Below are positions 3,483-63,977 of a stretch of DNA of 64,000 nt, piece after piece. The DNA is from Mobula hypostoma (taxonomy: Eukaryota). The DNA lies in the NCBI RefSeq assembly GCF_963921235.1, contig NC_086108.1:79176001-79240000 (forward strand), read 5' to 3'. Both the position numbers and the translations under genes were made by a program. The notes beneath the pieces are model-generated. The model did no database searches. It was given only the letters and a program-made list of their open reading frames with translations, and was not told where the DNA came from. Every line of letters begins with the position of its first letter. The first letter of the stretch is position 1.

Positions 3483-3917
3483 GTGCTTTGGCAGCTTCTA
3501 CAGCCAGAAGTCTTGGTACATGTTGGTACCAATGACATAGGTAGAAAAAGCGAGGAGCTCCTGAAGAGCGAATTCAGGGAGTTGGGTAGGAAGCTGAAAA
3601 GCAGGACCTCCAGGGTAGTAATCTCAGGATGGCTGCCTGTGCCACGTGCTAATGAGTGCAAGAATAGCATCATCAGACAAATTAGTGCGTGGCTGAGAGA
3701 CTGGTGTGGCAGACAGGACTTTGGGTTCCTGGATCATTGGGGTCTCTTCAGGGGGAGGTATGACCTGTACAAAAAGGACGGGTTACACCTGAGCCCAAAG
3801 GGGTCCAATATCCTAGCAGGCAGGTTTAATAGACCTGTTAGGGAGGGTTTGAACAAATTTGGTAGGGGGACGGGAACTGGGTTGAGGAAGGCAAAAACAG
3901 AAATAAATCAAAGATAG
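3483..3917 (+). pseudogene. CR1 ORF1p SGNH/GDSL esterase domain, C-terminal part
   Basis: HVGTND block and DGLHLS (DxxH) catalytic motif, directly upstream of CR1 ORF2. Confidence 0.85.
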
Positions 3918-6376: not shown

Positions 6377-8462
6377 AACAGCCAGATGCTGTGCAAATGA
6401 CTACTGACTACAACTATGTGAAAGCATTCAGTCATCATTTAAAATAGGCAACATCCGTGGAGTGTACGAGGGGATTAAGAAAGCCATCGGGCCAACTCAG
6501 AGCAAGACAGCATCATTGAAAACCATAACAGGTGAGACCATCAATGACAAAGGCAAGCAGATGGAGAGATGGGTGGAGCATTACTCTGAACTCCTCTCCA
6601 GAGAAAACAGCATCTCAGACAGCGCGCTAGACACCGTGGAATGCCTGCCTGTCATGGAGGAACTTGGTGCATTGCCAACTGCCGAAGAACTGAGTAAAGC
6701 CATCGACAGCCTGTCCACTGGGAAGGCACCAGGATTGGATGGCATTCCACCAGTGGCCATCAATTTCGCAAAGGGCGTCCTGCTAAACCACCTGCACGAA
6801 CTACTGTGCCAGTGCTGGGTAGAGGGAGCAGTGCCGCAAGACATGAGAGACTGCAACATTGTCACCATATATAAGAACAAAGGGGACAGAAGCAACTGTA
6901 ACAACTACAGGGGAATCTCCTTGCTGAGCATTGTTGGGAAGGTCTTCTCCCGCGTGGTCCTGAACAGACTGCAGGAAATAGCCGAAAGGGTATATCCCGA
7001 GTCTCAATGTGGTTTCACGTCAGAATGCTCCACAATCGACATGATCTTCTCCCTTCAACAGCTATAAGAGAAATGCAGAGAGCAAAGACAACCACTCTGC
7101 GTCGCTTTCATTGACCTTACGGAGGCCTTCGATCTTGTGAGCAGAGACGGCCTGTTCAAAATCCTCGCCAGGATTGGTTGTCCCCTAGGGCTCCTCAGGA
7201 TAGTTCAGTCATTCCACACAGACATGAAGGGCGTCGTTCAGTTCGACGGCTCTTTTTCAGAGGCCTTCAACATCCGCAGCGGTGTGAAGCAGGGCTGTGT
7301 GCTTGCCCCCACCCTGTTTGGCATCTTCTTCGCAGTCCTGCTGAAGCACACCTTTGGTACATCAACTGATAGTGTCTACCTCCACTCCAGATCAGACGAG
7401 AGGCTGTTCAGTCTGTCCTGGCTGAGGGCAAAAACCAAGGTTCGTGAAGTACTCATCAGGGACATGTTGTTTGCAGATGATGCGGCACTGGCAACACACT
7501 CTGAAGAGCAACTGCAGCGCCTCATGGACAGCTTCTCAAGAGCCTGCCAGGACTTCAGCTTGACCATCAGCCTGAAGAAAACAAATGTGTTGGGCCAAGG
7601 CTTTGAGCACCCCACTGCCATCACCATCAACAACTACGAGCTGGAGGTAGTTCACGAGTTTACATACCCTGGCTCCACCATCACAGACAGCCTCTCCCTA
7701 GACCCCGAGATCAACAGACGGATCAGACGAACAGCCTCAACATTCGCTAGGCTGACGAAGAGAGTCTGGGAGAATAGAAAGCTGATGACGCACACCAAGG
7801 TCGCAGACTACAGGGCCTGCGTCCTCAGCACACTGCTTTACAGCAGTGAGACCTGGAGCCTCTACTACAGACAAGAGCGGCGTCTCAACGCCTTCCACCA
7901 TCACAGCTTGAGACGCATCCTGGACATCAAGTGGGTTGACCGAGTCACCAACAATGAGGACCTGGCCCGTGCTCAGGTACCCAGCCTTTTCACCCTGCTC
8001 CAACAACGCCATCTCCGCTGGCTGGGCTACGTACACCACATGTCAGACGGGAGGATCCCGAAAGACCTGCTGTACGGGGAACTGGTCTCCGGCAAGAGAG
8101 CACAAGGGTGGTCCCATCTGCGATTCAAAGATGTCTGCAAGAGAGACATGAAGTCACTGAACACGAATGTCGAGAGGTGGGAGGACATCGCAAGTGATCG
8201 CTCTCACTGGAGGCTGGAACTATGCAGAGGTCTAAAAAGAGGAGAAGAGAAGCTGAGGCTTGCTGCTGAAGAAAAGCACACTTGTCGGAAAAACAGCACC
8301 AAGACAACACTGGAGGACAGCGCCTTCAAGTGCAGTCACTGCAGCCAAAACTGTCACTCCCATGTGGGCCTCTACAGCCACAACAGGCGCTGCTCTAACA
8401 CGGACTGAAGCAAGACTTTCCAGGCACAGATACATGGTCTCGCAAGACTAACGGATGCCACA
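6377..8462 (+). mobile_element. RTE-clade LINE, 5'-truncated, inserted into the CR1 RT C-terminus
   Basis: CR1 text GCTCCTTATT stops at 6376 and resumes (ATT)TTAGAAAGG at 8463; possible 3-bp duplication ATT; short 3' UTR. Confidence 0.95.
6378..8408 (+). pseudogene. RTE ORF: reverse transcriptase plus C-terminal C2H2-type zinc finger
   Basis: Single frame with only two stops (TGA 6405-6407, TAA 7065-7067); NYRGISLLS, FIDLTEAFD, GVKQGCVLAPTLF, LFADD, RWLGYV, FKCSHCSQNCHSHVGLYSHNRRC. Confidence 0.93.
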
Positions 8463-16020: not shown

Positions 16021-18861
16021 GAGTCATAGAGTCATAGAGAAGTTCAGCGCAGAAACAGGCCCTTCGGCCCATCTAGTCCATGCCAAAACTATTTAAACTG
16101 CTTACTCCCAAACACTGCACCAGGACCATAGCCCTCCATATCCCTACTATCGATATACCTACCCAAATTTCTCTTAAATGTTGAAATTGAGCACACATGG
16201 ACCACTTGGCCTGGCAGCTGGTTCCACACTCTCATGACCCTCTGAGTGAAAAAGTTTCCCCTCATATTCCCCTTAAACTTCTTAACTTTCACCCTTAAGC
16301 CATGACTTCTGGTTGTAGTTCCACCCAACCTCAGTGGAAAAAACCTGCTTGCATTTACCCTATCTATACCCCTCATAATTTTGTATACCTCTATCAAATC
16401 TCCTCTCAGTCTTCAACGTTCCAAAGAATACAGCCCTAACCTATTCAATCTTTCCTTATAACTCATGTCCTGCAGACTCGGCAACATCCTTGGAAATTTT
16501 CTCTTTCAAACTTGTTTTCATCTTTCCTGTAGGTAGGTGACCAAATTTGCACACAAACTCCAAATTAGGCCTCACCAACATCTTACACAACTTCAACATA
16601 TCATCCCATCTTCTACACTCAGTACATTGATTTATGAAGGCCAATATATCAAAAGCTTCCTTATGACCCTATTTACCTGTCATGCCACTTCCATCAAATT
16701 ATGTACCTGTGTTCCCAAATCCCTTTGTTCTACTACACTCCTCAGTGCCATACCGTTTTAAAAATCTTTTGTTGATACATAATCTTCTACAGCTATAAAA
16801 TGATACAAGACTTCACAAATTGATATATACAGTTAATAAAGCTGAAAAAAAACTTATCAGAAAAGAATAATATATGATAATGAAAAAAATTATATTTTTT
16901 TATATAAAGAAAAGAAGGAAAAAAGAGAACCCCAACCAACTAAAAGAAAAAAACCCCACTAACTACAAGAGAAAGGAAAAGAAAAAAGAAAAAAAAACAT
17001 TAGGAACCAACTCCCGGAGCAATATGTCTTACAATCATCTATATATATAAAGAAGAAAAATCATCAACTGCCAATTCACATTTATATAAAATAAGATTGG
17101 AAGGAAACCATATAAATTAATTCAAATTAAATGATAATATTTGGCAAAAGAGCCCCATCTTCTCTCAAAATCAAATCGAGGATCAAAAGTTCTACTTCTA
17201 ATTTTTTCCAAACTAAGACATAACATTACTTGGGAAAACCATTGAATTAATGTAGTGACAGAGGTATCTTTCCATTTCAATAAAATAGCCCTTCTTGCCA
17301 ACAATGTAACAAATGCAATTACATGTTGGTCTGAAAATGAAATATCCTGAATATGATGCGGAACTATTCCAAATAGAATAGACAATGTATTAGGTTGTAA
17401 ATTAATTTTCAGAGCTTTAGAAATTGTAGAAAATAAAGATTTCCAAAAAGATTTTAATGAAGAACATGACCAGAACATATGTGACAAAATGGCTACTTCA
17501 GTTTTACACCTATCACAATAGTTGTCTATGTTAGGAAATATTTTGGATAGTCTCTCCTTTGTTAAACACTAACGGTGAACAATTTTAAATTGAATTAAAC
17601 AGTGATTTGCACATATTGAAGAAGAATTGACTATTTTCAGAACTCGCAACCAATCTTCATTAACAAAGGTCATATTAAGTTCTCTCTCCCAATCTTGTTT
17701 AATCTTTAGTGAGAGGTTATCTTTTTGTAGTAAAAATAAATTATAAATTCTACCAATGGAACCTCTCACTAAAGGATTCATGTTCAAAATAGTATCCAAC
17801 AAATCAGATTCTTGCATATATGGAAACTTAGATAAGTATTTTTGTGAAAAATGTCTAACCTGAAGATATTGCAGGAAGTGTGTATGAGATAGAGAATATT
17901 TGCTAATTAACTTTTCAAAAGTCATCAATCGACCATCACAACATAAATCTGCAAAAAAACAGATCCCCTTATTTCTCCATAAGAGAAAAATGGATCAGTT
18001 ATTGAAAGTTTAAATAGAAAATTTCGATATAAAGAGCTACACAATTTAATTTTTTTCAAATTAAAAGAGTTGCGAAACTGAAACCAAATCCGTAAGGACT
18101 GTTTAATAACAGGGTAGAGATTTAAATCTGGAATTTTAGCAAGTTGTAAAGGTAACGGAGCTCCTAATAATGAGGTTAAATTAAATTGTTTGATAGCTTT
18201 TAATTCCAAATCAATCCAAGCTGGGTTTCGGCTCTTGTCAAGCCAATATAGACAAAAACATCATTGTCGAATACAGCCCAATAATACCATCTTACATTAG
18301 GTAGTGCAAGTCCACCATTTTTTTTAGATTTTGGTAAATGATACTTATTAATTCTTGGTTTTTTATTATTCCAACTAAAGGACAAAATAATAGAATCAAT
18401 TTGATCAAAACATTTTTTAGTTAAAAAGATAGGTATATTTTGAAAAATACATAAAAATCTAGGTAAAATCATCATTTTCACGGCATGAATACGACCTATT
18501 AAAGAAAGTGTAAGTGGGTTCCATCTAGAAAATAATTGTTTCATAGAGTCCATTAAAAGAACTACATTAGCTTTATAAAGTTCTACCTAAGTGCAAAATC
18601 TCGCACTTCTCTGCATTAAATTCCATCAGCTATCTTTCAGCCCATTTTTCTAGCCGGTCCTGATCCCTCTGCTAGTTACGATAGCCTTCCTCACTGTCCA
18701 CTACATTCCCAGTCTTGGTATCATCCGCAAATTTGCTGATCACGTTAACCTTATTATCATCCAGATCATCGATATAGATTACAAACAATAATGGACCCAG
18801 CACCAATCCCTGCAGCACCCCACTAGTCTTGGGCCTCCAGTCAGAGAGACAATCCTCTCTC
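16021..18861 (-). mobile_element. CR1 LINE 3' portion (second subfamily, CTATGACT tail) nested antisense in CR1 and split by L1
   Basis: Tail gagtcatagagtcatag at 16021; KFADD at ~18720 on the minus strand; host PHLEY-C|ELFW junction at 16020/18862. Confidence 0.9.
16757..18580 (-). mobile_element. L1-clade LINE, 5'-truncated (ORF2 C-terminal region plus T-rich 3' UTR)
   Basis: LSLIGRIHAVKMMILPRFL, GGLALPN, QFKIVHR, CDRCKTEVAILSHMFWSC (CCHC knuckle); no TSD seen. Confidence 0.92.
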
Positions 18862-24446: not shown

Positions 24447-24890
24447 AGAGATTCTGCAGATGCTGGAAATCCAGAGCAACACAAATAAAACGCTGGAGGA
24501 ACTTAGCAGAGCAGGCAGCATCTATGGAGACAATAAGTGGTTAATGTTTTCAGCTGAAACCCTTCATCGGGGCAACCAGGAACTTAAAATTGCTCACCCT
24601 TTCCACTGCTGACACCTCAGTGAGGACTGGCCCGAAACATCGACTGTTTAGTGAAATTTAAGAGACCACTAGACAGGTATATGGAGGAATTTAAGGTGGG
24701 GGGTTATATGGGAGGCAGGGGTTTGAGGGTCGGCACAACATTGTGGGCCAAAGGGCCTGTACTGTGCTGTACTATTCTATGTTCTATGTTCTATATGTTC
24801 ACTCTCTTCCATAGATGCTGCCTGGCCTGCTGAGTTCCTCTAGCATTTTGTGTGTGTTGCTTAGATTTCCAGCAACTGCAGATTTTTTTT
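24447..24890. mobile_element. Inverted pair of PLE termini with a Rex/Babar scrap at the junction and a nested CR1 3' end
   Basis: Left arm 24447-24571 (minus), right arm 24629-24650 plus 24796-24890 (plus); degenerate hammerhead remnants in both. Confidence 0.85.
24651..24795 (+). mobile_element. Short CR1 3'-end insertion
   Basis: (TTCTATG)n tail; flanking near-duplication TGTTTA 24645-24650 / TGTTCA 24796-24801. Confidence 0.85.
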
Positions 24891-33139: not shown

Positions 33140-33350
33140 ACACAGGAGACTGCAGATGTTCGAATCTGCAGTGTAAAGAATATAGCTGAAGGAACTCAGC
33201 GGGCAAGCAGCATCTGTGGAGGCAAAGGTGCAGTCGACATTTTGGGTCAAGATCCTGCATCAGTCCTGACCCAAAACAGAAACCATCTTCTTGCTTCTAG
33301 AGACGTAGCTTGACCCACTGAGCTCCTTCAGCAGTTTCGGTTTTTTTTGC
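33140..33350. mobile_element. Old inverted pair of PLE termini
   Basis: Left arm (minus, with tail) to 33253; right arm (plus, no tail) 33254-33350. Confidence 0.75.
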
Positions 33351-35077: not shown

Positions 35078-35505
35078 ATAAGACCTCTACTGGAGACTTC
35101 CTTTATCCATTGTTTTCCAGTTATCCTGCAGCCATTTCTTTGCAAGGAGGCTGAAGTGAGATTCTTTTCTCAGGATACTACCACAGCTGCTCAATGCTAC
35201 AGAGTGAGGTGATGGGCTGGATCTCTATCTCATTCATTGTGTGTGAAAAAAATCTGGCTTTCAGTTCTGTTAAGCAAAGGTTAGACACTACTCTGTCGTA
35301 AATGTAAGTTTGAAAGATATACCGTTTAAACGGATCGAGATTAAGAAAGCAAATTTAACTGTTCATTGCTGTGTACAGATGTTTTTTCTTGTGTTTTTGA
35401 CCTTTCCTTTGCCATTGTGTGCCTGAAAACTTTGAGGTAAGGAATAACACACATCAAAGTTGCTGGTGAACGCAGCAGGCCAGGCAGCATCTGTAGGAAG
35501 AGGTG

Positions 35506-35543
35506 CAGTCGACGTTTCAGGCCGAGACCCTTTGTCAGGACTG
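35506..35543 (-). ncRNA. Hammerhead motif copy with core mutation (CUGACAA, G8 to A), probably inactive
   Basis: Reverse complement of 35865-35902 except position 35533 (CpG-type transition). Confidence 0.75.
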
Positions 35544-35864
35544 ACTGAAGGAAGAGTGAGTAAGGGATTTGAAAGTTGGAGGGGGAGGGGGAGATCCAAA
35601 ATGATAGGAGAAGACAGGAGGGGGAGGGATGGAGCCAAGAGCTGGACAGGTGATAGGCAAAAGGGGATACAAGAGGATCATGGGACAGGAGGTCCGGGAA
35701 GAAAGACAAGGAGGGATGGGGGACCCATGATCCTCTCGTATCCCCTTTTGCCTATCACCTGTCCAGCTTTTGGCTCTATCCCTCCCCCTCCTGTCTTCTC
35801 CTATCATTTTGGATCTCCCCCTCCCCCTCCAACTTTCAAATCCCTTACTCACTCTTCCTTCAGT

Positions 35865-35902
35865 CAGTCCTGACGAAGGGTCTCGGCCTGAAACGTCGAC
35901 TG
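35865..35902 (+). ncRNA. Minimal type I hammerhead ribozyme motif (PLE-associated), intact core
   Basis: Stem I CAGUC/GACUG; CUGACGA; stem II AGG-gucucgg-CCU; GAAA; C-GUC cleavage triplet (predicted cut after 35897); stem III reduced to palindromic ACGU. Confidence 0.85.
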
Positions 35903-36410
35903 CACCTCTTCCTAGAGATGCTGCCTGGCCTGCTGCGTTCACCAGCAACTTTGATGTGTGTTGCTTGAATTTCCAGCATCTGCAGAATTCCTGTCGTTTG
36001 AGGTAAGGAATAACTGCATTTTGTGCTTTTCAGATCAGCAGCAGAGTTTCTGTATGATGGCATTCTGCTGTTTTGAATACAATTCCCTCTCCTTTCATTT
36101 GTAATTTGATTAACATAGTCTTCACAACACTTTTTTTTTAAAGAAAGAAGCATTGAATTTTGAGAGATTACTTTTATTAGTCAGTTTGATGTGTCTGTGG
36201 TGAACAGACAGAATCTGTTCAAGACTGACAGCTTATGAATTGCAGTTTCACAGAGAAATAATTTGCACAGTTCTGGGAGAAAGCTTTAAGATAAGTAACT
36301 TTGCCTGTCAAGCAAGGCACAATGAGCGCTAATCTAACCACTTTGCTTCATGATACCGTACAGTAAGTAAAGTGCTTGTGGCAGTCATCAATAACAATAC
36401 TCAGAGATAT

Positions 36411-36984
36411 AAAAGACTGCAGCGGCTGGAGTCCGGAGCAACACACAACATGGTGGAGGAACTCAGTGGGTAAGACAGCATCTGTGGAGGGAAATGGCCG
36501 TTGGGCATATTGAATTGGGTCCCTGATTTGGACTGAAAATAGAGGGGAGAAAGCTAGTATAAAAAGGTGAAGGGAAGGGTTTGAGCAAAAACAGGCAAGC
36601 GACAAGGGTGAATCCAAGTGACAGACATGTGGAGAAGGGAAGAGTGAAAATGGTGACAGAAGCTCGGAGGTGGAGGCTATTCTTATCTGGATCCAACTAT
36701 TGCTTACAAGATCTGGCTCCACCCCTTCCCTCCACCTTTTTATATTGGATACCTTCCTTCTATCTGGCAATCCAGATGAAAGGTTTCATCTCAAAATACT
36801 GAATAAAGGTTATGGGGAGAAAGCAGGAGAATGGGGTTGAGAGGAAAATTGTTCAGTCAGGGTGAAATGGCAGAGCAGACTCAATAGGCCAAATGGCCTA
36901 ATTCTGCTCCTACGTCTTATGGGTGTCCATTGTCCTCCACAGATGCTACCTGACTCACTGAGTTTCTCAGATATCATGTGTGTT
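36411..36984. mobile_element. Old inverted PLE pair with nested CR1 3' end (36803-36923)
   Basis: Left arm with tail; right arm stops at GTGTGTT without tail; decayed hammerhead CAGATGAAAGG...CAAAATAC at ~36773-36800. Confidence 0.75.
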
Positions 36985-37229
36985 ACATGAGATTGCTCAA
37001 TTGTTATGAATCAGATCATCAATGTGTCAATAAGTGGTGAAGTAGTCCATTTCTACTGGGTGATCACAGTACAATTTGACATTGCTTGGCCTAATGGTGT
37101 TGGAGAAGGGGATCAACTTGCACCTGGATGTTCAATGATTAAAAAGCTTCATGAAATTTTGAGTATCAAGATAAGCAACATATTTTAGATCTATTTTACT
37201 TAGAAATCTATTTTCAGAATATTTTGATT

Positions 37230-38509: not shown

Positions 38510-40406
38510 ACCAGCAGCCAGTCTGGGCATCGGAAGTTTTGAGAGGAGGGGACTTCAATCAGGTCTACTGCCCAAGGATAAAAGATAGCAATGGGCTGCA
38601 CCAGCAAAAAAAGAAATTTGCCCAGCGGCCAATCCGCGTTTGGGATTGATTAGTAAATCAATTGATTAGAGCAAATGAAAGGAAGACAGGAGCAAATGCA
38701 GCAGTTATCGTTGCAGTAGCTGTCGTCTGAGGGGACAGAGTCAGAGTGGTGATCTTGAGGGTTTAGCTCTTCAAGGCTTCAGTGAATAGAGTCAAAGAAT
38801 GCAAAGGAAAGAAAAATTATAGTTTTTTTTCCTTCTTTTCTTTATATCTCCTCAGCTGGGGACAGTGGAGACACCAGACAAGGTAGTGAAAAGCTCCTCT
38901 TGCAGGATGTGGGAAGGCAGGGAGACCTCCAGTGTCCCTGACGACCACAAATGTGAGAAGTGCATCCAGATGTAGCTTCTAACAATCCATGTTAAGGAAT
39001 TAGAGCTGGAACTGGATGAACTCCGGATCATTTGGGTACTGAAGGGGTGAGAGGTAGGGCACATAGAGAGGTAGTTACACCCAAGGTGCAGGAGACAGGA
39101 AAGTGGGTGACAGTCAGGAAGATGAAAGGGGTTAAGGAACCCAGTACCGAGTACCCCTGTGGTGATCCCCCTCAACAACAGGTTTCAATATTGTAGGGGG
39201 GAATGTCCTAACAGAGGAAAGTCACAGTGGTCAGGTCTCTGTGACTCAGAAGGGAATGGGAAGCTGTGGTGATAGAGGATTTGTTAGATGGGGGAACGGA
39301 CAGGAGATTCTGTGGGCAAGAATGAGATTCCTGGATGGTATGTTGCCTCCTGGGTGTCAGGGTCCAGGATATCTCAGATCGAGTTCTCAGCATTCTTAAG
39401 TGGGAGGGTAAACAGCCAGGATTGTGCTCCATGTAGGTACCAATGACATGGGTAGGATGAATTTAGAGGTTCTACATAGGAGTTCAGGAAGTTAGGTGCT
39501 AAATGAAAGGCCAGGAACTCCAGGGCTGTCCTCTCAGGATAGCTACCCATGCCACATGCTACTGAGGCCAGAACTTTGAAGATTATACAGCTTAATACGT
39601 GGCTAAGGAGTTGGTGTGGAAGGGAGGGCATAAGATTTTTGGATCATTGGACACTCTTCCAGGGAAGGTGGGACCTGTACAGAAAGGATGGTTTGCACCT
39701 GAACCGGAGGGGGACTAATAAGCTAGCGGGAAGGTTTGTTAATGCTGCTCAGTGGCATTCAGAGCTGCAGGGGGAAGGGGACCAGGGTGCCAGAGCATTT
39801 AGTGGAGAGGTTATGGAGGCAGATGTTGGTAAGACCTGAGACAAAATTAGGAATCAAGAGATCGAGTATGCTGTGACTAATATCCTGAGCTGCCTATATC
39901 TGAGTGCAGAAAGTATCATAGGAAAGGCAGATAATAGTGCTGAAGATGAGGTAGCTGGTTTACAAACAGGGGCAATGTGTAGTGAGGAGAGGCTGTTGAT
40001 AGGGCAAAATTGCAGTCAGCAGAGTGAGTTGCAACGTAAAAGGCAGTCAAAATCAAAATGGGTGAATACAGTACTGAAGGTAAACAACAGGAATTCTGCA
40101 GATGCTGGAAATTCAAGCAACATACATCAAAGTTGCTGGTGAACGCAGCAGGCCAAGCAGCATCTATAGGAAGAGGCGCAGTCGACGTTTCAGGCCGAGA
40201 CCCTTTGTCCTATAGATGCTGCTTGGCCTGCTGCGTTCACCAGCAACTTTGATGTATGTTGACAGTACTGAAGGTGTTGTATTTGAATATGTGCAGTATG
40301 TGGAATAAGGTAGATGAACTTGTAGCACAGTTGCATGTTGGCAGGTATGATGTTGAGAGCATCATTGAATCACAGCTGAAAGATTATAGCTGAGAGCTTA
40401 ATGTCC
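38510..40406 (+). mobile_element. CR1 5' region (UTR, ORF1 Cys-rich motif plus SGNH esterase, start of APE)
   Basis: SSCRMWE...CEKCIQ, HVGTND, FLDHW...KDGLHLN, LKVLYLN; split by a PLE at 40082. Confidence 0.88.
40082..40261. mobile_element. Short fold-back PLE insertion (36-nt tail, 54-bp perfect inverted arms)
   Basis: Arms 40118-40171 / 40208-40261; 14-bp TSD ACAGTACTGAAGGT 40068-40081 / 40262-40275; truncated hammerhead 40179-40209 (minus). Confidence 0.95.
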
Positions 40407-44530: not shown

Positions 44531-44886
44531 GGTTTACTTGCATTACTAACTGCTGTGTGACCACTGAGAGGTGAGTCCTTCCAAGTTGTCTGAAAAACAT
44601 TCAAACTTTACCAGGAATTTCTTTGAAGTTTTCCTCTGAGACTGTTCTCTCATCCCAAATAATCAACTCTGAAGAATAAGCCCTTTTCGTGTTGCTCAGT
44701 GTTAAATGTTTACTTTGCCACATTGTGGACCAATTCTAAACTAAATCAATCTCATGTGTCCTCTGTGAGAAAAAGTGGTCATTATCATAAGTAAGGACAC
44801 TGACTTTCTGGGACATACACTCTTCTCGTTACCACCATCACAGAGGAGGTGCAGGAGCTTGAAGAATCAACACACAATGATTCAGT

Positions 44887-46081
44887 AACACACACAAAAT
44901 GCTGGAGGAACTCAGCAGGCCAGGCAGCATCTATGGAAAAAAGTACAGTTGACGTTTCGGGCCGAAGGTCTGGAGGTAAAAAACTGAGGAGTAGATTAAA
45001 AAGGTGAGGGGATGGGAAAGTGAAACACCAGGTGATAGGTGAAACCTGGAGGGGGAGGGACGACGTAAAGAGCTAAGAAGTTGGTTGGTGAAAGAGACAG
45101 AAGGCCATGGAAGAAAGAAAAGTGTGGGGGGGGGAGCGCCAGAAGGAGGTGATGGGAGGGCAAGGAGATAGGTGAGAGAGGGAAAACGTGATGGAAGATG
45201 TTGAAGGAGCGAGGGGGGTGGGGGCATAACTGGAAGTTTGAGAAATCGATGTTCATGCCATCAGGTTGGAGGCGACCCAAACAGAATATAAGGTGTTGTT
45301 CCTCCAACCTAAGTGTGGCCTCATCATGGCAGTGGAGGAGGCCATGGATGGACGTATTGGAATGGGAATGGGAAGTGGAATTAAAATGGGTGGCCACTGG
45401 GAGATCCCACTGTTTCTGGCAGACGGAGCATAGATACTTGGCAAAACGGTCTCCCAATCTAAGTCGGGGCTCACCAATATACAGGAGGCCACACTGGGAG
45501 CACCGAAAATAGTAAGTAACCCCAATAGACTCACCTCCCTTGGAAAGACAGTTTCGGGCCCTGAATGATAGTGAGGGAGGAGGTGTAGAGTCAGGCATAT
45601 CACCTGATCCGCTTGCAAGGGTAAGTGCTAGGAGGAAGAAGAGTGGGGAGGGATGTATGGACAAGGGAGTCATGTAGGGAGCAATCCCTGTGGAGAACAA
45701 AAAGTTGGGGAAGGGGAGGGAAAGATTTGCTTGGTGGTGGGATCCCATTGGAGGTGGAGGAAGTTTTGGAGAATTATGTGCTGGATGTGGAGGCTGGTGG
45801 AGTGGTAGGTGAAGACAAGAGGAACCCCATCACTGGTCGGGTGGCGGGAGAATGGGGTTAGGGCAGACATGCGTGAAATGGAAAAGAAGTGGTTGAGGGC
45901 AGCGTTGATGGTGGAGGAAGGGAAGCCCCTTTCTTTGAAAAAGGAGGATATCTCCTTTGTTCTAGAATGAAATGCCTCATCCTGAGAGCAGATGCAGCGG
46001 AGTCGGAGGAATTGAGAACAGGGGATGGCGTTTTTACAAGTAGTGGGGTGGGCATGTGCAGATTTTCTCTTGCTTGTGACT
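44887..46081 (-). mobile_element. Penelope-like retroelement, truncated (RT thumb/linker plus GIY-YIG endonuclease plus terminal repeat), inserted in a Rex/Babar scrap
   Basis: 12-bp TSD CAATGATTCAGT 44875-44886 / 46082-46093; inverted tail piece 46052-46081; hammerhead region partly deleted at 44947-44970. Confidence 0.93.
45225..45530 (-). pseudogene. GIY-YIG endonuclease domain of a PLE
   Basis: VTYYFRCSQCGLLYIGEPRLRLGDRF...PVATHFN...RLEEQHLIFCLGRLQPDGMNIDF. Confidence 0.9.
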
Positions 46082-49000
46082 CAATGATTCAGTGACAACT
46101 TCTTCCCCTCCACTATCATATTTCTATATAATCCACAACATTTTACCCAAATTCCACCATCATGTCAGCAGCGAATAAACAGACCGAACCATGTTTATAT
46201 AAGCAGACACGGTACTTACAAAGCCACCCCAGGCCCTCATCTTGGTCTGTCTAACCACATCTCCATAATGTTAATCCCAGCATACCAACTGCTGCTGAAA
46301 ATTGAGAAACCAGTCAAGAGGACCATCACCATATGGCCTAATGAGGCAATCTCTCTGCTTCTAGGCTGTTTTAAAATGACTAATGTTTGAGGAGGCGGGC
46401 ACAAACGGAGAAGGCACAGACCTTGAGGAATATACCTCATCTGTCACTGGCTACATCAGTAAGTGTGTAGACGATGTTGGTACCTCACAAATGGTCATCC
46501 CAGACCCAAACAGTCAGGGATGCCGCTTTTAAGCCTGGAGGCATCAAGAGGTCAAAGGCTGCCTATGCACAAAAAAATTCAGGAACACCTGTCGATAACA
46601 ATCCCCGGGAACGTGGCTGAGCAACAAGGGCATAACTAACTGTGCAAGGAACAACAGTATGAACTGCACCAGTGAAGCCTCCCTCCCCAATGCTCCAAAC
46701 TTTCATGCACGCTTTGAGGCTTGCAACACAATGACGGCCATGAAAGCTAACAGTCCGTCCCCACCCCTCTGGGTGAGCAGCAACCGCTTACAACTGTGTT
46801 GGTCTTCCCAAATAAAACTGCTTGAAGTGTTTTATGTTTCAGAAAAACTGTAACACATCTTGTTGAACTCCAAAACCTGAGCTCAAAGTATGCCAAAACC
46901 CTTTACGTGGTTGCGAATTATGTGCATTTCCACCAATTACATTACTCGCTGCCAGAATTCAGTGAAACCAGCATTGTGAACCTACCTGGAGCTCGGCCGA
47001 GCCACCCATCTCGGGTCCTATGCTCCATGGGTGGAGGAACAGCAGGTACCTCTGGCTTGTCCAGAGGTGTGTTGCCACACTAATGGTCATGTTGTGACAG
47101 GGGTATCATAGCAGGTCACTGGCTTAAGGTGATCTACTGAAATGCATTCAGCTTTGCCCCTCTTATCCATGATAGAAGTAATTTCTCCCTGTTCCAAAAC
47201 GCAGAACGGGCCATCATAAGGGAGCCTAAAGGGATGTTGGTGTGCATCGTGGTGGAAGAAAACAAGTGAGGCAGAAGGTAAGTCAACAGGGACCTTAGAG
47301 TGCTGTCCACCATAAAGGGAGGTAGGAGCGGGTGAAAAGGAATTAAGTTTACCGAGGAGAGTAGAACACTGTGAGAGGCTGACCAGGTGGTTGTGGTGTC
47401 GGGAATGAAATCACCAGGCACTTGAAACAGCTGCCTGTATGCCAACTCAGCCATGGACAACAGCAGGTCCTCTTTTGGAGCTGTCCTGAGCCCCAGCAGG
47501 ACCCACGGGAGACGAGCAACCCAGGTGCTGATGGTTGCCTGAGCCGTGTCTGTGGCCGTCGTTGATGCTAGGGGGACAACCTCTGGACGCCTGGTGGTAC
47601 AGTCCACCATGATAAGGAGGTGCGTGAAACTGCGGGAGGGAGGAAGAGGACCAGCAAGGTCCACTTTGACAGTCAAACCGTCGCTCAGGAACTTCAAAAG
47701 CTGCCAGTGGTGCCGGTTAATTTTTGCCTGCTGGCACTGTAAAAAGGCTGCACTCCAATCACACATGTCCTTTTGAAGGCCCTGCCACACAAATTTTAAT
47801 GCAGCCATTTTCTGTGAGGCCTTCTGACTCGGATACGAGAGGCCATGTATGGAGTCAAAAACATTCCGCCTTCAGTTTGCAGTCATGATGGGGCAAGGGC
47901 AAACGGTTGAGACATCCGACAGGAGGGAAACCCCAGCTTTCCTGAACTTAATATCAGCCAACCGCAGGCCCTTGACTGCTGTTCGGTAAGCCTGGATCTC
48001 CATGTCAATAGCTTAGTCGGCTGCCATGCCGGCATAGTCAGCCCTTGTGTGTGTATGGCCTCAATGGCTGGGCGTGAGAGGCAATCAGCCACAGCATTAT
48101 TTTTCCCCTTGATATGTTGTATATGGGTCTGATATTTTGGCCATCGTGTGTATGAGGGGTTTGTGATCAGCGAGCACTATGAAATAGTGACCCTCTGGGA
48201 GAAATCGAAAATGGTGGACAAACAGATAGAGACTGAGAAGCTCACGGTCAAACATGCTGTATTTTCTTCCAGGCGGGCGGAGCTGGCGGCTGACGAAGGC
48301 GAGTGGCTGTCACACACCTCTAACCGACTTGTTCATGCACAGCACCCACAAGCATAGTCCGAAGTCAGTAGTACTGGGCAGCAGGTGTTCCAGTAGGGTC
48401 ACATTAGAAAGAGCTTGTTTGGTATCATCAGATGCCATGGTCGTGACCACTGACCGTCAAGCACTTGTTTAGGGTGTTGCCTTTAAGCATATTAAACAGG
48501 GGGAGCATAAGTTCAGCAGCTCGCTGAATGAAGAGGTGATAGAAGTTAACCATACCTAAAAACTCCTGAAATTTTTAGTAGTGTGGGGCAGTGGGAATTC
48601 CATAATAGTGGCTAATTTTGATGGGAGGGCTTTCCCACCCTCCGTGGAGATGTGATGGCCGAGAAAGTCAATGGTTGACAACCCAAACTGGCATTTAGCA
48701 GGGTTAATAATCAAGCCATGTTGGCTTAAGCACTCAAGAAGAGTGCGGAGATGAGATACGTGTTCAGACTTGGGATGCACTGGTGACAAGTATGTCATCC
48801 AGGTAGACAAAAAGAAAAATCTACGTTTTTTAATACAGAGTTCATCAGCCATTGCAAAGTCTGTGCTGCATTTTTCAGTCCAAACAGCTTGCGCAGAAAC
48901 TCAGAGAGCACAAGCAGGGTTATCACAGCCATTTTGTGAATTTCCTCCGAGCACACGGGCACCTGATGGTTGCTCCTAACTAACTGATGTGGGACCGGGA

Positions 49001-50823: not shown

Positions 50824-52389
50824 ACATTTTATTGGACACCAAACTCTGAACACAAAGTATGCTGAAATGTTTCATGTGATTACATCATCACGTCAGACCA
50901 GCCTCTCAAAGTGCAACCCCAACTCAATGTCGGCGATTGTGAATTATGTACGTTACCACCAATCACATTATCCTACAACAGCAGCAGATGTGAGAAGGAC
51001 TCTGCAGAGAGTCAAGTCCATAAGGCTGCCGGGTCAGGAAACATCCTAGGTTGAGTACTCAGGGGTGTGCACACCAGCTCACTGACATCTTCATGGACAT
51101 CTTCATCACATCACTCATCCAGGCTGCAGACAAATCGGCCACCATCATCCTTGAACCAAAGAACTCTACACCTTCAGATCAAAATGACTACCGCCCAGTG
51201 GCACTGGCTTTGAATGACTGGTAGTGACACACGTCAAAAACTCCATTCTTGCCACACTGGACATAACCCAATATGCTTACTGACAGAACTAGTCTATGAC
51301 AGATCCCATAGCAATGTCCTGCTCCTCAGTCTAAATACACCACTGTACAATTAGGTGTTGGACTTCCTAACCAACAGACCTAAGAAAGTCAGGATGCACA
51401 ATTGCTCCTCCCTCTCCCTCCATCAACCACAACACAGGTACCCCCAGGCCTGGGTGCTGAACCCACTGCTGTACATGACTCACACATGACTGTACAACAA
51501 AATACCCAAGTGATCACATTTTCAAGTTCATCAATGACATGACGGTGGTAGGGCTCATCACCAACAGTGATGAGATGGCCTACAGAGAGGGGGTGGAAGG
51601 GTTTGAGGCCTGTGGCTAGGCAAATAGTCTCTTCCTCAATGTCAACAAGACCAAGGAGATGATTATCGTCTTCAGGAGAACTTGCTGAACTCACACCCCT
51701 CTTTACATCGGCTCACAGCAGTGGAACCTGCGAGCAGCTTCAAACACCTGGGAGTGCACATTCTGCATAAGCCCTCATGGTCCCAGAACACATCCTACAC
51801 AACCAAGAAGGTTCACCAGTGCACCTAGAGAGCTGGACTATGCACATCAATACTCACGACTTTCTACAGATGCACGGTAGAGAGCATCCTAACAAGTGGC
51901 ATCATTGCACGGTACGGAAACTGCTCCGCGGTAGACAGAAAGCCTCTACAACGGGTCGTCAAAACTGCCCAGTACATCACCGGTACCAGACTGCCTGCCA
52001 TCAGCGACATATATATAGCAGGGTGCCAGAAAAAAGGCTAGCAATATCATGAAGGATTCCACCCATCCTGCTTGTGGACTGTTTGTCCCACTCTCATCAG
52101 GGAAGAGGCTATGTAGCGTCCATACCAGGACCACCAGACTCAAAAAACAGTTACATACCCCAAGTAGTGAGGCTGATCAACTCCTCCACAACACCTCCCA
52201 CTACCATTAGCTTATCATTTTCTGTCAGTCACTTTATGCACATAACAATCTGTATACAGTATATAAGCTATCTTAAGTATTTATTTTTATTGTGTTCTTA
52301 TCTAGTCCAAACTTCATGTTTATATTTTTCAAAAATAGTTCTGCTATTCAAATTAATTGCTTTAGCTTTACTGATGATGTAAAGAACAA

Positions 52390-53640
52390 ATGATAATCAA
52401 TTTTGTCATTCTAAATCAGGCCCAGAGGAAAAGAAGAAATCTTTCATGTTGTTAATCGACTACCAAAAAGCATTTGATTCTGTCCCATACTCATAATTAA
52501 TAGAAGTTCTTAATATATATTCACTATATCTAATGGTTGTGAAAATTTAAATTGTCCATGTGTAGAAGGTGAGTCAAGGTATAATCCATTTGGTTGTTTC
52601 TGATTTGATACCCCATTTTCATCTGATTCAGTAAATTAGAGAACAGGACTAAAGCTAGACAAAGCCATAGTGGGCTTAGAGAGTTGCCCTGGAAAATGCC
52701 TGGGTTTATTGTGATAATGGTGGTTGTTCTTTTTTGTTGTTAATAGAATAATTATAGTATGCCAATGCTTCATCAGATGATGTAAAAACTTCACAAGTAT
52801 TGGGTGGAGTTAATATATATTAAGAACTGATACTAAGCATGAGTGTGTGACAGAATCAAATGCTTTTTGGTAATCAATATATCAACATGAAAGATATCTG
52901 CTTTTCCTTCGGGCTTGATTTACAATGACAGAATCTACTATCAGTTGTTCTTTACATCCTTTCATACCTTACGGCATCCTTTCTGCTCTTCTGTAAGTAT
53001 ATTATAGTTATTGAAGTAAGTGGTGATTAGTTGCGAGATGCATGTTGTCACAATAATATAGAGTTTGTAAACAAGTAATAGGATAATATTTTGATAGATC
53101 ATTTGTGATTTCTCCTGCAGGTAAGAGATATGTTTTACCTTATTATTGTTGTATTTTTATTTTTTCTCAGCTCAAGTTGGTAAAACCTGAGGTACAGGCA
53201 TAGCCAAGCACACTCATTTCTCAATTGCAAGGGACTTTTGGATTATTCTACTGGTGTTTAGTATTGTGGCTTTCTGGAGATTTACGTAGATATTGCTGTG
53301 TAGCAATAATTGGTTGGTGCTATTGTGTAGTGCCTTTGGGATGATACTAGTTGTAGATACTACTTTCAGGACAATGTATACCCTGTTCATGTTCCAAAGC
53401 CTTTCAATTTCTTCTTTTAATTCAGCATATTTCGACTGTTTTTCTCTTATTGATTTTTGTATGTTATGTTTTGTAATGGCTATATCTATTAAGTAAGTTG
53501 CTCTTTCTCATTCATTCTGTACTATTATATCTGGATGGTTATTATGGATTGTCTTATCTGTAACAATGGATCAGTTGTAATATAATTTGACCCTAAAACT
53601 GGATCAGGCTTGTATTTATAGTAAGGAATGGTTTCTTTTA
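52390..53640. mobile_element. R4/Dong-clade LINE fragments (RT and restriction-like endonuclease), rearranged
   Basis: IDYQKAFDSV on both strands (52455 plus, 52880 minus), GIFQGNSLSPLWLCLAL, NHPDIIV...KYAELKEEIERLWNM (minus). Confidence 0.8.
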
Positions 53641-56592: not shown

Positions 56593-57330
56593 CAGTGGAT
56601 TCCAGTTAATTGGGACACATCAGTACCAGTACATTTTGGCCCAGTTAAACAGTGCCCCAGTTAGCCAAAGTTCCATGGAAATAGTTAAAAACGGGATTAA
56701 AATAGACAAACTATCATTTCCATGAGTAACACTACTAATATTACTACAGTACTATAGAACTGTGCATGATTTCCTAATAGTTATCAACTGAGGAATTCAT
56801 CTAGAGTTCGCTATCATGCTTGGCTGCAAGTGAACAAAATCAGTGCAGACCTCTATTGCAGATAATGGACTGCCTTCATACAATGCTTTCAATAACTGTA
56901 TCCTCCAAATCTCCATTTTTCATTGTAGCATTCAAGGTGATTGTGGCTACCTTCAAATTCTTCGTAGGTGCTAACTTGTTGAAGAAGTGAAATCATTTCA
57001 CTTTAACTCCTGGCCGTTTCTGGCATCTCCAAGTCTGAATGCTTCAAGCACAGTGAGCAAAACAGTTTTGAGCTGTCTTAGAGCTTATTTCTCACCAAAT
57101 ATCAGTGAGGAAAATAAGTACAGTGTTGTGTCTAACGGCCATGCAAGTGCACACGACTGATGCTACTTAGAAACTGTGCAGCAACAGTATTCTGTCCCAA
57201 TTAAGAGGCACAGTGCCAAAATAAATGAAGGGAATCCTGGTTATTTTCTCAATTAGTTTTTGTTAAGAGTTCTCTCAACAATTGAGTTCTGCCTCAATTA
57301 ACCAATGGCCCAATTAACCAGAGTCAACCA
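56593..57330. mobile_element. Tigger/pogo-like (Tc1-mariner) deletion derivative inserted in an old CR1 fragment (56240-56590, 57331-57390)
   Basis: TA flanks; left end CAGTGGATTCCAGTTAATTGG, degenerate right end CCAATTAACCAGAGTC; acidic transposase-tail-like remnant on the minus strand. Confidence 0.7.
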
Positions 57331-57453
57331 TATTATGAAGTTATGCAATTCTCTACCCCAGAGAGCTGTGAAAGCTAATTTGCTGATACAATTCAGCTAT
57401 TTAGCATTCACAGCTCTCTGGGGTAGAGAATTGCATAACTTCATAATATGGTT
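57326..57453. repeat. Inverted repeat with 47-bp perfect arms
   Basis: 57326-57372 is the exact reverse complement of 57407-57453; pairing continues imperfectly inward. Confidence 0.95.
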
Positions 57454-60150: not shown

Positions 60151-60384
60151 TTTGCTTGCCACTGATAAGTAGTCACTGAGCTTCACCAGTGTCATCTCAA
60201 ACTGGAAGTATTTGCCTATGGAGTAAATAAATCTTGTTGTTGTTATATAAGGCTTTGGTGTGACTGCAGCTGGAGTTTTCATCTCTTTACCAAGGAAAGG
60301 AAATATTTGCCACAGAAGAAATACAGTGAAATTCATCCGGCTAGTTCCTGGGATGGTGGGTTTTTATAGAGAAAATAATCAGTA

Positions 60385-61875
60385 GGATAGTTGTTGAGCC
60401 CATTAGGGGATCGGCTGTACTGGATTGGGTATTGTGCAATGAACCAGAGGTGATTAGAGAGATTGAGGTGAAGGAACCCTTAGGAGACAGTGATCATAAC
60501 ATGATTGAGTTCACTGTTAAATTTGAGAAAGAGAAGCCAAAATCCGATGTGACGGTATTTCAGTGGAGTAAAGGAAATTACAGTGGCATGAGAGAGGAAC
60601 TGGCCAAAGTTGACTGGAAAGGGACTCTGGTGGGAAGGACGGAAGAGCAGCAGTGGCTGGATTTTATGCGAGAAGTGAGGAAGGTGCAAGACAGATATAT
60701 TCCAAAAAAGAAGAAATTTTCGAATGGAAAAAGGATGCAACTGTGGCTGACAAGAGAAGTCAAAGCCAAAGTTAAAGCAACGGAGAGGGCATACAAGGAA
60801 GCAAATATTAGTGGGAAGACAGAGGATTGGGAAGTTTTTAAAAGCTTACAAAAGGAAACTAAGAAGATCATTAAGAGGGAAAAGATAAACAATGAAAAGA
60901 AGCTAACAAATAATATCAGAGGATACTAAAAGCTTCTTCAAGTATATAAAGAGTAAATGACAGGTGAGAGTAGATATAGGACCGACAGAAAGTGATGCTG
61001 GAGAAATTGTAATGGGAGATAAGGGGATGGCAGAGGAACTGAACGAGTATTTTACATCAGTCTTCACTGAGGAAGACATCAGCAGTATACCAGGCACTCA
61101 AGGGTGGCAGGGAAGAGAAGTGTGCGCAGTCACAATTATGACAGAGAAAGTACTCAGGAAGCTGATTAGTCTAAGGGTAGATAAATCTCCCGGACCAGAA
61201 GGAATGCACCTTCGTGTTCTGAAGGAAGTAGCTGTGGAGATTGCGGAGGCATTAGCAATGATCTTCCAAAAGTCAATAGGTTCTGGCATGATTCTGGAGG
61301 ACTGGAAGATTGCAAATGTCACTTTGCTATTTAAGAAGGGGAAATGGAAGCAAAAAGGAAATTATAGACCAGTTAGCTCGACATCGGTGGTTGGGAAGTT
61401 GTTGGAGTCGATTGTCAAGGATGAGGTTACAGAGTACCTGGAGGCATATGACAAGATAGGCAGAACTCAGCATGGTTTCCTTAAAGGAAAATCCTGCCTG
61501 ACAAACCTATTGCAATTTTTTGAGGAAATTACAAGTAGGCTAGACAAGGGAGATACAGTGGATGTTGTAAATTTGGATTTTCAGAAGGCCTTTAACAAGG
61601 TGCCACACATGACGTTGCTTAACAAAATAAGAGCCCATGGAATTACGGAAAAGTTACATACGTGGATAGAGCGTTGGCTGATTGGCAGGAAACAGAGAGT
61701 GGGAATAAAGGGATCCTACTCTGGTTGGCTGCTGGTTCCCAGCGGTGTTCCACAGGGGTCCGTGTTGGGGCCGCTTCTTTTTACGTTGTACATCAACGAT
61801 ATGGATTCTGGAATAGATAGCTTTGTGGCTAAGTTTGCTGATGGTACAAGGATAGGTCGAGGGGCCGGTGGTGCC
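60385..61875 (+). mobile_element. CR1 ORF2 internal fragment (same subfamily as 3501-8990), 3'-truncated
   Basis: ORFs 60432-60929 and 60964-61941: SDHNMI, NYRPVS, GVPQGSVLGPLLF, KFADG. Confidence 0.95.
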
Positions 61876-62169
61876 AGAACACACACTACGTTTTACCAAG
61901 TACACTTTATAGATATTACTAAGTCTATGAAATTAATATAAATTTGGTACAGAAAAGGAAGAAGGTCTAGGCCTGCTCCCAATTTACAAGTTCTTATCGC
62001 TGCAATTTCTGTAAAAATCTCTAAGAAATGCATATTCTTCCATCTCGGATCCCTCTCCATAATCATTCTCACCATTGTCTGCCATGTCTTCAACTACCTT
62101 CATCCAGAATTCTCTTTCCAACCCTATTCCCTTTTCTCCTCCTTATATAAATGTTAAACAAACTACAAA

Positions 62170-62300
62170 CAATTGAAAATCTGCAAATGCTGGAAATCAA
62201 AGTAATACACACAAAATGCTGCAGGAACTCAGCAGGCCAGGCAGCATCTATGGAAGAAAGTAAACAGTCGATCTTTTTGCCCAAAACATTGACTGTTAAA
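62170..62300. mobile_element. PLE terminus with small inverted piece
   Basis: Tail plus terminal repeat (minus) to ~62272, then GCCCAAAACATTGACTGT (plus). Confidence 0.8.
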
Positions 62301-63977
62301 CTATCTCTTTGACAACAGGCTTTTCACCTTGCCAGATGTCACCACCATTGGCTTGGTGGTTACTTTTGCTTGATTTCCTCCTGATTGTCAATGGAAATAA
62401 GGGACTTAATAGATTGTTGAGCTATACAGCACATACCTGCTTTACGAGAAGTCTAAATTCAAATTTGCTTCCAATGCGTCCTTTCATTGCTTTGCATAAA
62501 ATCAATATCATCAAAGGTCTCTGAAATAAAATGAAGGTATTTACCACTAATCTGTCCAAAGGGCCTTTCCATCTGTTGATTACTCTGTGCTAGAAAGTAC
62601 TTCTGAATATCAATGCGGTATCATCTATAACTATTTTTGACATCCAGATGGCATCTCAACACTGAAGCAATGGGTGGTACCAATCAGAATTTCATGCCAC
62701 CAGTTTTTCCATGATGAGAGTGGAGAATTGCTGTGATTTTGTTCACAACATACAGATGACAATGTACAGATGTCTAACCAGTTACCATAGCAATAGAAGG
62801 AAATCAAGAGAATACAGTCAGAGACAGTAGCTGGAATTTTAGTTATAGTGAAAGGAAATTAAAATTACACTAGGTTGCAGTATTTTGCAGGTCCTAATTT
62901 TATAAAAAATACGATCAATATTATACTTGTAATTAATCTAGATCATTGGTGTTTCATTTTGCAATTCTTGATAAAATATTATCGTGAAGTACGTCCAATA
63001 TATGACTTGCAAGCAAGGAAACCTGAGAGTGCCCCTGCTTCTGTCAGCAACTCAAAGCCCACACTGTTACGTAAATGCTAAGGGGGAAGACGCCTGTTCC
63101 CATTATACTGAACACACATACTTCTTGTAAGAATAGAAAAGGCAAGCATAAAGCATTCAGAGTGAAAGCTTTCATATGTCTTTTTGTCTTTATCTTCAAA
63201 ATATCTTACTTTGTGGATTATCAGCAATGCCCTCAGTCTAAATAACCAACCATTTTGGAAAATGAAATACCCTGCAGCTATCTGCAGGGAGAATGAGCAA
63301 GAAACAATGTTCTGCTTTTGAGTTTAAATGCTGCGACCACAAGGGAAAATGAAGGGAAATAAATTGCCCAGAGGCAAGATTTTGAGGAAGAACTTAAGTT
63401 TGCTTGATAGAATAGAATGAATGAATTCTCTTCCCAAAACCCTGAGGACCTCTTAATTCAATAACTTGGAACAGAAAATTGTGCTTATGGAAGTTTAATC
63501 AGCAAGATGTTTTTGAAATCTTAATGGAGCTCTGCAGCTCTTCAAAGTTCAGACCTCAGTCAGTGCTAGAAGCAAATAGTTTGACTCTGATATAGGAAGA
63601 GTAATAGGTGATTGGAGTGATAATAAAGCAGTAACCTAATCGAGGGTTTCAGATGAAAGAAGACCTGTGTTGCTGCTAGGTTTGAGTGGTTTCTGCCTGA
63701 CTCCTGAACACCTTGATTAGATTACTGCTTTGTAATCTTATCAGGTTTCTTTGCTGCATTTCCTTTTTGTAAGGTTAAATATATAGAGTGATAAGTTTGC
63801 CTTCGTTCACTCCTATAATCTGTATGCAGCAGTACTAACCACTGCTATACCCACCTCCAGCCATTCAGTTCCATTGTCATTGAAGTAAAGGCCCAACAGA
63901 AGAGCAGGGCCTTATCTTTCACAGTACCCTCCTAATTGGATCCTGGGAACAGTATGTAGTTTTATATATCAACAGAC

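Follow-up and report, generated by a model that had tools for sequence, protein, structure and literature searches.

A complete minimal hammerhead motif, likely inert, in a head-to-head Penelope-like insertion of Mobula hypostoma

Results

A minimal type I hammerhead motif with all core positions

The stretch of Mobula hypostoma DNA analysed here (64,000 nucleotides; hereafter the window) carries, on the plus strand at 35865–35902, the 38-nt sequence quoted in the initial annotation as a minimal hammerhead ribozyme (Table 1). In hammerhead position numbering, the 5′ strand of its core comprises C3 (35870), U4, G5, A6, N7 (C35874), G8 (35875) and A9 (35876), and the 3′ strand G12 (35890), A13, A14, A15.1 (35893), C15.2, G16.2, U16.1 (35896) and C17 (35897). 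All 11 positions of the catalytic core (CUGANGA and GAAA..UH, with C at H17) are kept, stem I is formed by five Watson–Crick pairs out of five (35865–35869 with 35898–35902), and helix III is reduced, without a loop, to the palindrome ACGU (A15.1-C15.2-G16.2-U16.1).

A minimal-descriptor scan of both strands of the 64-kb window has this locus as its sole match, and 600 dinucleotide shuffles yield a mean of 0.045 matches with a stem I of at least 4 bp and 0.02 with at least 5 bp; both the sequence and this control bear out the description of an intact minimal hammerhead with a full core, a 5-bp stem I and a loop-less ACGU. Its fold stability is unexceptional (z = −1.63; 13 of 200 shuffles equally stable). 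A search with covariance models, suggested at the outset as a check, did not recover it: Rfam scans of the whole window at E ≤ 5 (23 matches) and of 35830–35940 at E ≤ 10 (4 matches) returned none to hammerhead models. Pattern scans for the motif gave 0 matches in viral contigs and 0 in metagenome contigs.

Two CAG acceptor-like sites (35864–35868) adjoin the 5′ strand of helix I, like the intron end described in D. virilis Penelope (PMC4209133).

The motif lies in one arm of a head-to-head insertion

The right arm of an insertion of 548 bp with a head-to-head plan (35449–35996) contains the motif; the insertion is bounded by a target-site duplication whose 18-mer occurs twice on the plus strand of the window and 0 times on the minus strand. 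Aligned over 35446–35684 and 35724–35962, the arms are 98% alike, with 5 differences in 239 nt; T35769 and T35777 are bases private to the right arm, and a small palindrome (35715–35728) lies across the arm junction. The tail, which the right arm alone possesses, measures 37 nt if the 3-nt overlap between left arm and target duplication is assigned to the target. The left arm holds a second hammerhead motif, 321 nt from the first on the opposite strand. This inverted insertion, with its target-site duplication and tail, is a setting absent from the initial annotation.

On the right flank, contigs from two other organisms match at about 97% and break off at 35997 and 36000, at the target duplication or 3 nt inside it; for this flank, the one compared, such stops are compatible with empty sites and with an insertion that is young. 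The small number of differences between the arms, together with two other organisms that seem to be without the insertion, suggests that it is young.

Table 1 Coordinates of the hammerhead motif, the insertions and the related element in the window
Feature	Position	Strand	Remarks
Left target-site duplication copy, 18 bp	35431–35448	+	Perfect repeat
Left inverted arm, tail-less	35449–35723	−	Extends 39 nt further 5′ (35685–35723)
Second hammerhead motif, identical except G8>A at 35533	35506–35543	−	Left arm
Right arm, 5′-truncated PLE terminal repeat including tail	35724–35996	+	
Predicted competing hairpin burying C3–A9	35856–35880	+	−10.4 kcal/mol alone; prediction
Type I minimal hammerhead motif with full core	35865–35902	+	Predicted cut 35897/35898
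Tail, right arm only, 34 nt	35963–35996	+	Tail concept: PMC11167929
Right target-site duplication copy, 18 bp	35997–36014	+	Perfect repeat
Second insertion, same subfamily and plan	40068–40275		14-bp duplication 40068–40081, 40262–40275
Tailed arm of second insertion	40082–40209	−	Cut inside hammerhead core
Tail-less inverted arm of second insertion	40208–40261	+	Arms identical over 54/54 nt
Decayed, 5′-truncated PLE: RT thumb, linker, GIY-YIG endonuclease, related terminal repeat	44880–46053	−	

A second insertion and the other copies in the window

The insertion at 40.1 kb has a tail-less arm that ends at the base equivalent to 35963, as against 35959–35962 in the insertion at 35.4–36.0 kb. 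The features of EN+ Penelope-like element (PLE) insertions, namely an inverted 5′-truncated copy, a tail of 30–40 bp at one end and a target duplication, are present in both. MicroRNA-like Rfam matches at 35.6–35.8 kb and 40.1–40.2 kb were rejected, as all score below the gathering score and coincide with the inverted arms.

Among 15 motif placements scored without gaps, 35865–35902 alone keeps all 11 core positions (ungapped scores at 32.87, 33.27 and 62.27–62.29 kb have slipped register and do not count core positions), and the 64-kb window contains no second intact same-sense copy of the motif. The other copies had been described as showing graded decay. Older, more diverged copies do make up the remainder, with more of them at about 10.2, 24.6, 36.5, 58.96 and 62.3 kb; the losses as a whole are nevertheless a mixture of point change (G8>A as the one change of the 35.5-kb copy), junction truncation (the 33.2-kb copy, and the 40.2-kb copy, whose core is cut by the inversion junction and which also has G8>A, at 40206) and a deletion of 11 nt of the core at 44.95 kb.

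Position N7 is U in four older copies (24.55, 32.87, 33.25 and 36.77 kb) and C in the three young ones. C7 and G8 form a CpG, and G8 is A in two of the three young copies. CpG sites are hypermutable; the recurrent G8>A at 35533 and 40206 may reflect either two separate events of CpG decay or a lineage that transposes with a dead ribozyme. Four other CpG sites common to the left arm and the 40.2-kb copy are intact in both, and position 35915 has three states (G, C and T) in the three young arms.

Older copies also occur as head-to-head pairs, at 24451–24885, 33150–33350, 36416–36995 and 62177–62310. Their junctions fall within the hammerhead or close to it, and the pairs at 24 and 36 kb are apparently interrupted by later insertions. 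No target duplication longer than 8 bp was found for these four older pairs.

A related endonuclease-bearing element at 44.9–46.1 kb

In the left arm, 184 of 285 nt (65%) align, in the same sense, with the region just 3′ of a decayed ORF at 44.9–46.1 kb, in an element that ends at about the same place as the tail-less arms and whose terminal repeat bears the 11-nt core deletion. Through this homology to the 3′ region of a GIY-YIG element, the placement of the motif in the sense strand of a PLE terminal repeat holds, the element being a relative at 65% identity and not the source of the insertion, and the window sequence contains no full-length source copy.

The proteins closest to this element come from rays: for the endonuclease piece, identity is 82% with a Mobula hypostoma protein and 76% with one of Hypanus sabinus. 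No Pfam GIY-YIG match was obtained for the decayed piece itself; relatives of the ORF give GIY-YIG matches just below or near the cut-off, and all four longer relatives scanned carry both RVT_1 and GIY-YIG. These relatives come from a protein search in which 12 of 45 candidates were accepted; an earlier one, restricted to targets of 486–2000 aa, had 0 of 24 accepted. In close relatives, a Cys-rich, Zn-finger-like linker, decayed in the window copy, lies between RT and endonuclease and may point to the Neptune type of PLE.

Two Hypanus sabinus annotations hold PLE endonuclease sequence, namely "divergent protein kinase domain 1C isoform X2" (P0003), which also has RT motifs, and "mucin-2 isoform X2" (P0004); both are likely gene models that absorbed the element.

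Formation of the insertion

Following published PLE biochemistry, the protein of the element would have nicked both target strands, 18 nt apart, and reverse transcription would have begun on the element RNA at a pair of sites separated by about 35 nt, near 35960–35963 for the left arm and at 35996 for the right arm. One cDNA per strand and start site would have been made, both stopping early and then being joined head to head.

It is possible, though we consider it the less probable course, that the inversion arose instead by fold-back or self-priming of one cDNA, the model of PMC3846280. The small palindrome spanning the junction would fit such an origin, as would the description of palindromes as common at head-to-head junctions (PMC3846280), and the shorter arm at 40.1 kb is contained, without differences, in the longer one. 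At 35.4–36.0 kb, however, the left arm has 39 nt that are absent from the right, and the right arm has a 34-nt tail that is absent from the left, so that neither arm is a plain copy of the other; moreover, two start sites are used by the anole protein, which cuts as well as extends each of the two strands (PMC11167929).

Priming of two cDNAs could also have drawn on two RNAs. The insertion would then record two-template, two-strand priming, in which a dimeric PLE protein made one cDNA per nicked strand and start site, from one RNA with an intact hammerhead and another of a transposing G8A lineage; this would account at once for the inverted arm and for the tail on one side, and would mean that catalysis by the ribozyme can be dispensed with, or is complemented, in vivo. 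Neither arm being a subset of the other, the G8>A shared by the left arm and the 40.2-kb copy amid four intact common CpG sites, and the three states of 35915 speak for such an event. We nevertheless regard it as unlikely, given that the arms at 40.1 kb are identical and that G8 lies within the C7-G8 CpG, which makes two independent deaminations plausible.

Stem II and variation within the family

A stem II is present as initially annotated, but its 3-bp register (−7.2 kcal/mol) scores less well than one in which A35877 is unpaired and four pairs follow (G35878·U35889, G-C, G-C and U·G; −8.6 kcal/mol). Four pairs, the first of them G·U, and an extra A thus appear to describe the stem better. 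In this lower-energy register A35877 is the additional nucleotide that separates position 9 from 10.1, and a G·U replaces the G10.1-C11.1 pair.

Variation in the family was read from assembled contigs of four sequencing runs, a kind of data that cannot show RNA ends, strand or level. The contigs that align to the stretch number 17,930, 21,451, 9,817 and 7,340, with almost all depth on the element; the element family is very abundant. At 35889, C accounts for 74% and 71% of the summed contig depth in two unclassified runs and for 21% and 29% in two runs that are tentatively RNA, and a C here restores the usual G10.1-C11.1 pair. The register with A35877 unpaired accords with both the published extra nucleotide and this frequent C. 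Among the 40 of 63 variants listed, those inside the motif are 35865 C>T, 35889 T>C and 35897 C>T, with 35901 T>A in one run; none of the variants listed falls at an invariant core position, and the stem changes are one-sided and pair-keeping only. Across the 12 window copies, several of them cut by junctions, covariation does not exceed that in shuffled versions, 382 out of 500 of which are as high.

Loose contig ends, in the 24 of 876 entries listed, pile up at the motif edges (35864–35867 and 35900–35902) and also at both 3′ ends (35963–35965 and 35992–36000); the listing for the four runs contains no pile of molecule ends. The piles at the motif edges suggest either stronger conservation of the motif than of its flanks across subfamilies or a favoured 5′ boundary at the motif.

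In the two unclassified runs, contig joints lead from 35897–35902 back to 35865–35866, as head-to-tail hammerhead duplications with a period of about 35–40 nt. Such hammerhead-only duplications would put two same-sense motifs next to each other elsewhere in related genomes.

Predicted folding and cleavage at this locus

At the level of the family, two same-sense motifs in a full-length tandem transcript would pair through ACGU, and the transcript would be cut weakly after C17, likely with help from the element's protein. At 35865–35902 there would be no such same-sense partner, and the predicted RNA folds bury the core.

Specifically, the predicted fold of the 38-mer on its own is a rod (73% of the ensemble), with G5-A6-C7-G8 paired to C15.2-G16.2-U16.1-C17. 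With the upstream flank, the hairpin at 35856–35880 is predicted to take the core, with P(stem I) at 0.001–0.002; a right-arm RNA started at 35864 reaches a predicted P(stem I) of 0.43, and then almost wholly within the inactive rod; and in a transcript across both arms the motif is predicted to pair with the left arm (P = 0.99995). Nearest-neighbour energies, which ignore core contacts and protein help, place the active dimer at −14.7 kcal/mol and the best inactive dimer at −33.5 kcal/mol. The copy had been annotated as cleavage-competent if provided with a second same-sense copy. Possession of the core is necessary, not sufficient; competence is thus far unsupported, and these models render it doubtful; they indicate that the copy is likely inert. 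Inertness is put no higher than likely because folding models omit tertiary contacts and protein, and against it stand the apparent youth of the locus and a core that is not decayed.

A contig joint from 35971 back to 35898, the first base after the cut site, occurs in both tentatively-RNA runs. It was rejected as evidence of cleavage, being represented by one contig in each and lying beside an internal similarity of 35886–35893 with 35963–35970 that also gives joints in the other runs.

Cleavage of this copy in vivo would call for a right-arm-only transcript, begun within the insertion, that pairs in trans with family RNA or is refolded by a PLE protein. All 11 core positions and both stems are intact, partner RNAs could exist in so abundant a family, and protein-assisted cleavage has been shown for the anole element (PMC11167929). 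Such cleavage is nonetheless quite improbable: stem I is hardly formed in the right-arm-only folds with upstream flank, a start at 35864 gives stem I almost wholly within the rod, a G·U stands in place of the conserved G10.1-C11.1 pair, and a search for RNA-seq ends at the cut site of the anole element found none (PMC11167929).

Other repeats and the question of host use

Elsewhere in the window there are several decayed LINE copies (3471–6214, 6408–8408, 12.1–15.9 kb and 60345–61941) with endonuclease-like and RT frames. LINE RVT_1 matches lie at 4873–5661 and 7068–8408, and the copy at 6.4–8.4 kb appears nested in another LINE. Fragments of another LINE type, with a weak zf-RVT match, lie at 17122–18586 on the minus strand. 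A decayed integrase fragment at 47134–47871, also on the minus strand, has weak Integrase_H2C2 and rve matches below the cut-off and likely derives from an LTR retrotransposon. A near-perfect hairpin at 57326–57453, with sub-threshold matches to microRNA models, and an inverted-repeat pair at 52376–52958 (81–85%) are possibly small inverted-repeat transposons.

A crude exon scan of the window revealed no convincing host gene; a long intron is compatible with the scan. Adoption of the motif by the host, for example as a cassette exon or an RNA-decay signal, is very hard to credit. A polypyrimidine tract and CAG at 35864, a donor-like GAG|GTAAG site provided by the target duplication at 36002/3 and an open 139-nt candidate exon holding the motif would suit it, but the insertion appears young, two other organisms seem to be without it, and the scan that gave the exon is crude, with 12 of its 18 candidate frames inside PLE-derived sequence.

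Discussion

In summary, the motif is very probably a minimal hammerhead in the 3′ terminal repeat of an endonuclease-bearing PLE, likely of a ray; within its head-to-head insertion, which is young and truncated, it is likely an inert passenger. The basis of this reading in the sequence is the complete core, the inverted arms, the target duplication, the one-sided tail and the homology of the arms to a GIY-YIG element. A chance match, or an inverted repeat produced by assembly, is barely conceivable: for all the lack of an Rfam hammerhead match and the unexceptional fold z-score, shuffled windows give just 0.02 matches each, the arms have 5 differences and do not extend equally far at either end, the 18-bp duplication is perfect, and the same plan is found again at 40.1 kb.

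Minimal hammerheads in metazoan PLE terminal repeats were described in 2014 by Cervera and De la Peña (PMC4209133), and the published model is of weak cleavage of tandem transcripts via the palindrome (PMC4209133; review PMC6765202), cleavage being weak even in dimers (PMC4209133). The identification of the present motif as a minimal type I hammerhead, belonging with those that are published as dimer-dependent, withstands this comparison. Like those motifs it is of type I, has no loop 3, a palindromic 15.2–16.2, an extra nucleotide between 9 and 10.1 and a 5-bp helix I, and it lies in sense in a terminal repeat, the published copies being mostly solo and truncated; opposite-strand pairs 100–700 bp apart are also reported (PMC4209133), and the pair at 35.4–36.0 kb is 321 nt apart. 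It differs in its G10.1·U11.1 wobble, where the published G-C pair is highly conserved (typical, not required), and, with four pairs in helix II, from the 7–8 bp of Schistosoma (PMC4209133). A further difference is the CpG that its C7 forms with G8. The main text of PMC4209133 names fishes, coelacanth, frog and reptiles and no cartilaginous fish, although its supplement may list some; a literature search for Penelope hammerheads in sharks found no relevant paper among the four listed, and supplements may likewise list cartilaginous-fish motifs.

The insertion unit described for EN+ PLEs consists of a 5′-truncated copy, an adjacent inverted copy, a tail of 30–40 bp at one end and a target duplication (PMC8557442, PMC3846280). 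The present unit resembles those of Craig et al. 2021 and Arkhipova et al. 2013 in its head-to-head arms with a 34–37-nt tail on one of them, and, again as in PMC8557442 and PMC3846280, the duplication flanks the whole unit and a palindrome marks the junction. The target duplications of 18 and 14 bp are longer than the 8–10 bp given for rotifer EN+ PLEs in the same papers, and the unit at 35449–35996, unlike the EN+ PLE unit, has no ORF.

In the anole (Anolis carolinensis), the protein of the Poseidon element PAc cuts the two target strands and extends them (Frangieh et al. 2024, PMC11167929). Reverse transcription by PAc has two start sites, and these define the tail. The PAc hammerhead, the one PLE ribozyme tested together with its protein, requires that protein for cleavage and is dispensable for insertion in vitro; RNA-seq ends at the hammerhead cut site were not found (PMC11167929). 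The ray insertions appear, from their sequences, to share two internal start sites that define the tail, with the hammerhead just upstream (compare PMC11167929). The linked ray element has a Cys-rich linker ahead of the endonuclease, a feature described for Neptune and Nematis and not for Poseidon.

Animal non-LTR retrozymes, which bear hammerheads, are reported from the one chondrichthyan sampled in a 2026 preprint (bioRxiv 10.64898/2026.07.22.740005). Like them, the present unit is non-coding, PLE-derived and equipped with a type I hammerhead; retrozymes, however, are arranged in head-to-tail tandem and contain two or more intact motifs (bioRxiv 10.64898/2026.07.22.740005), and identity with them was rejected because the unit at 35449–35996 is head-to-head and has a single intact hammerhead.

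The motif, the opposite-strand pairs, the inverted arm, the tail and the target duplication are thus all already published (PMC4209133, PMC8557442, PMC11167929), and since every structural feature is known, the single locus is of little import. The subfamily, by contrast, is young and abundant, and comparison of arm with arm over many insertions could decide between one template and two in the origin of PLE inversions and tails, and could also show whether transposing lineages need intact hammerhead cores.
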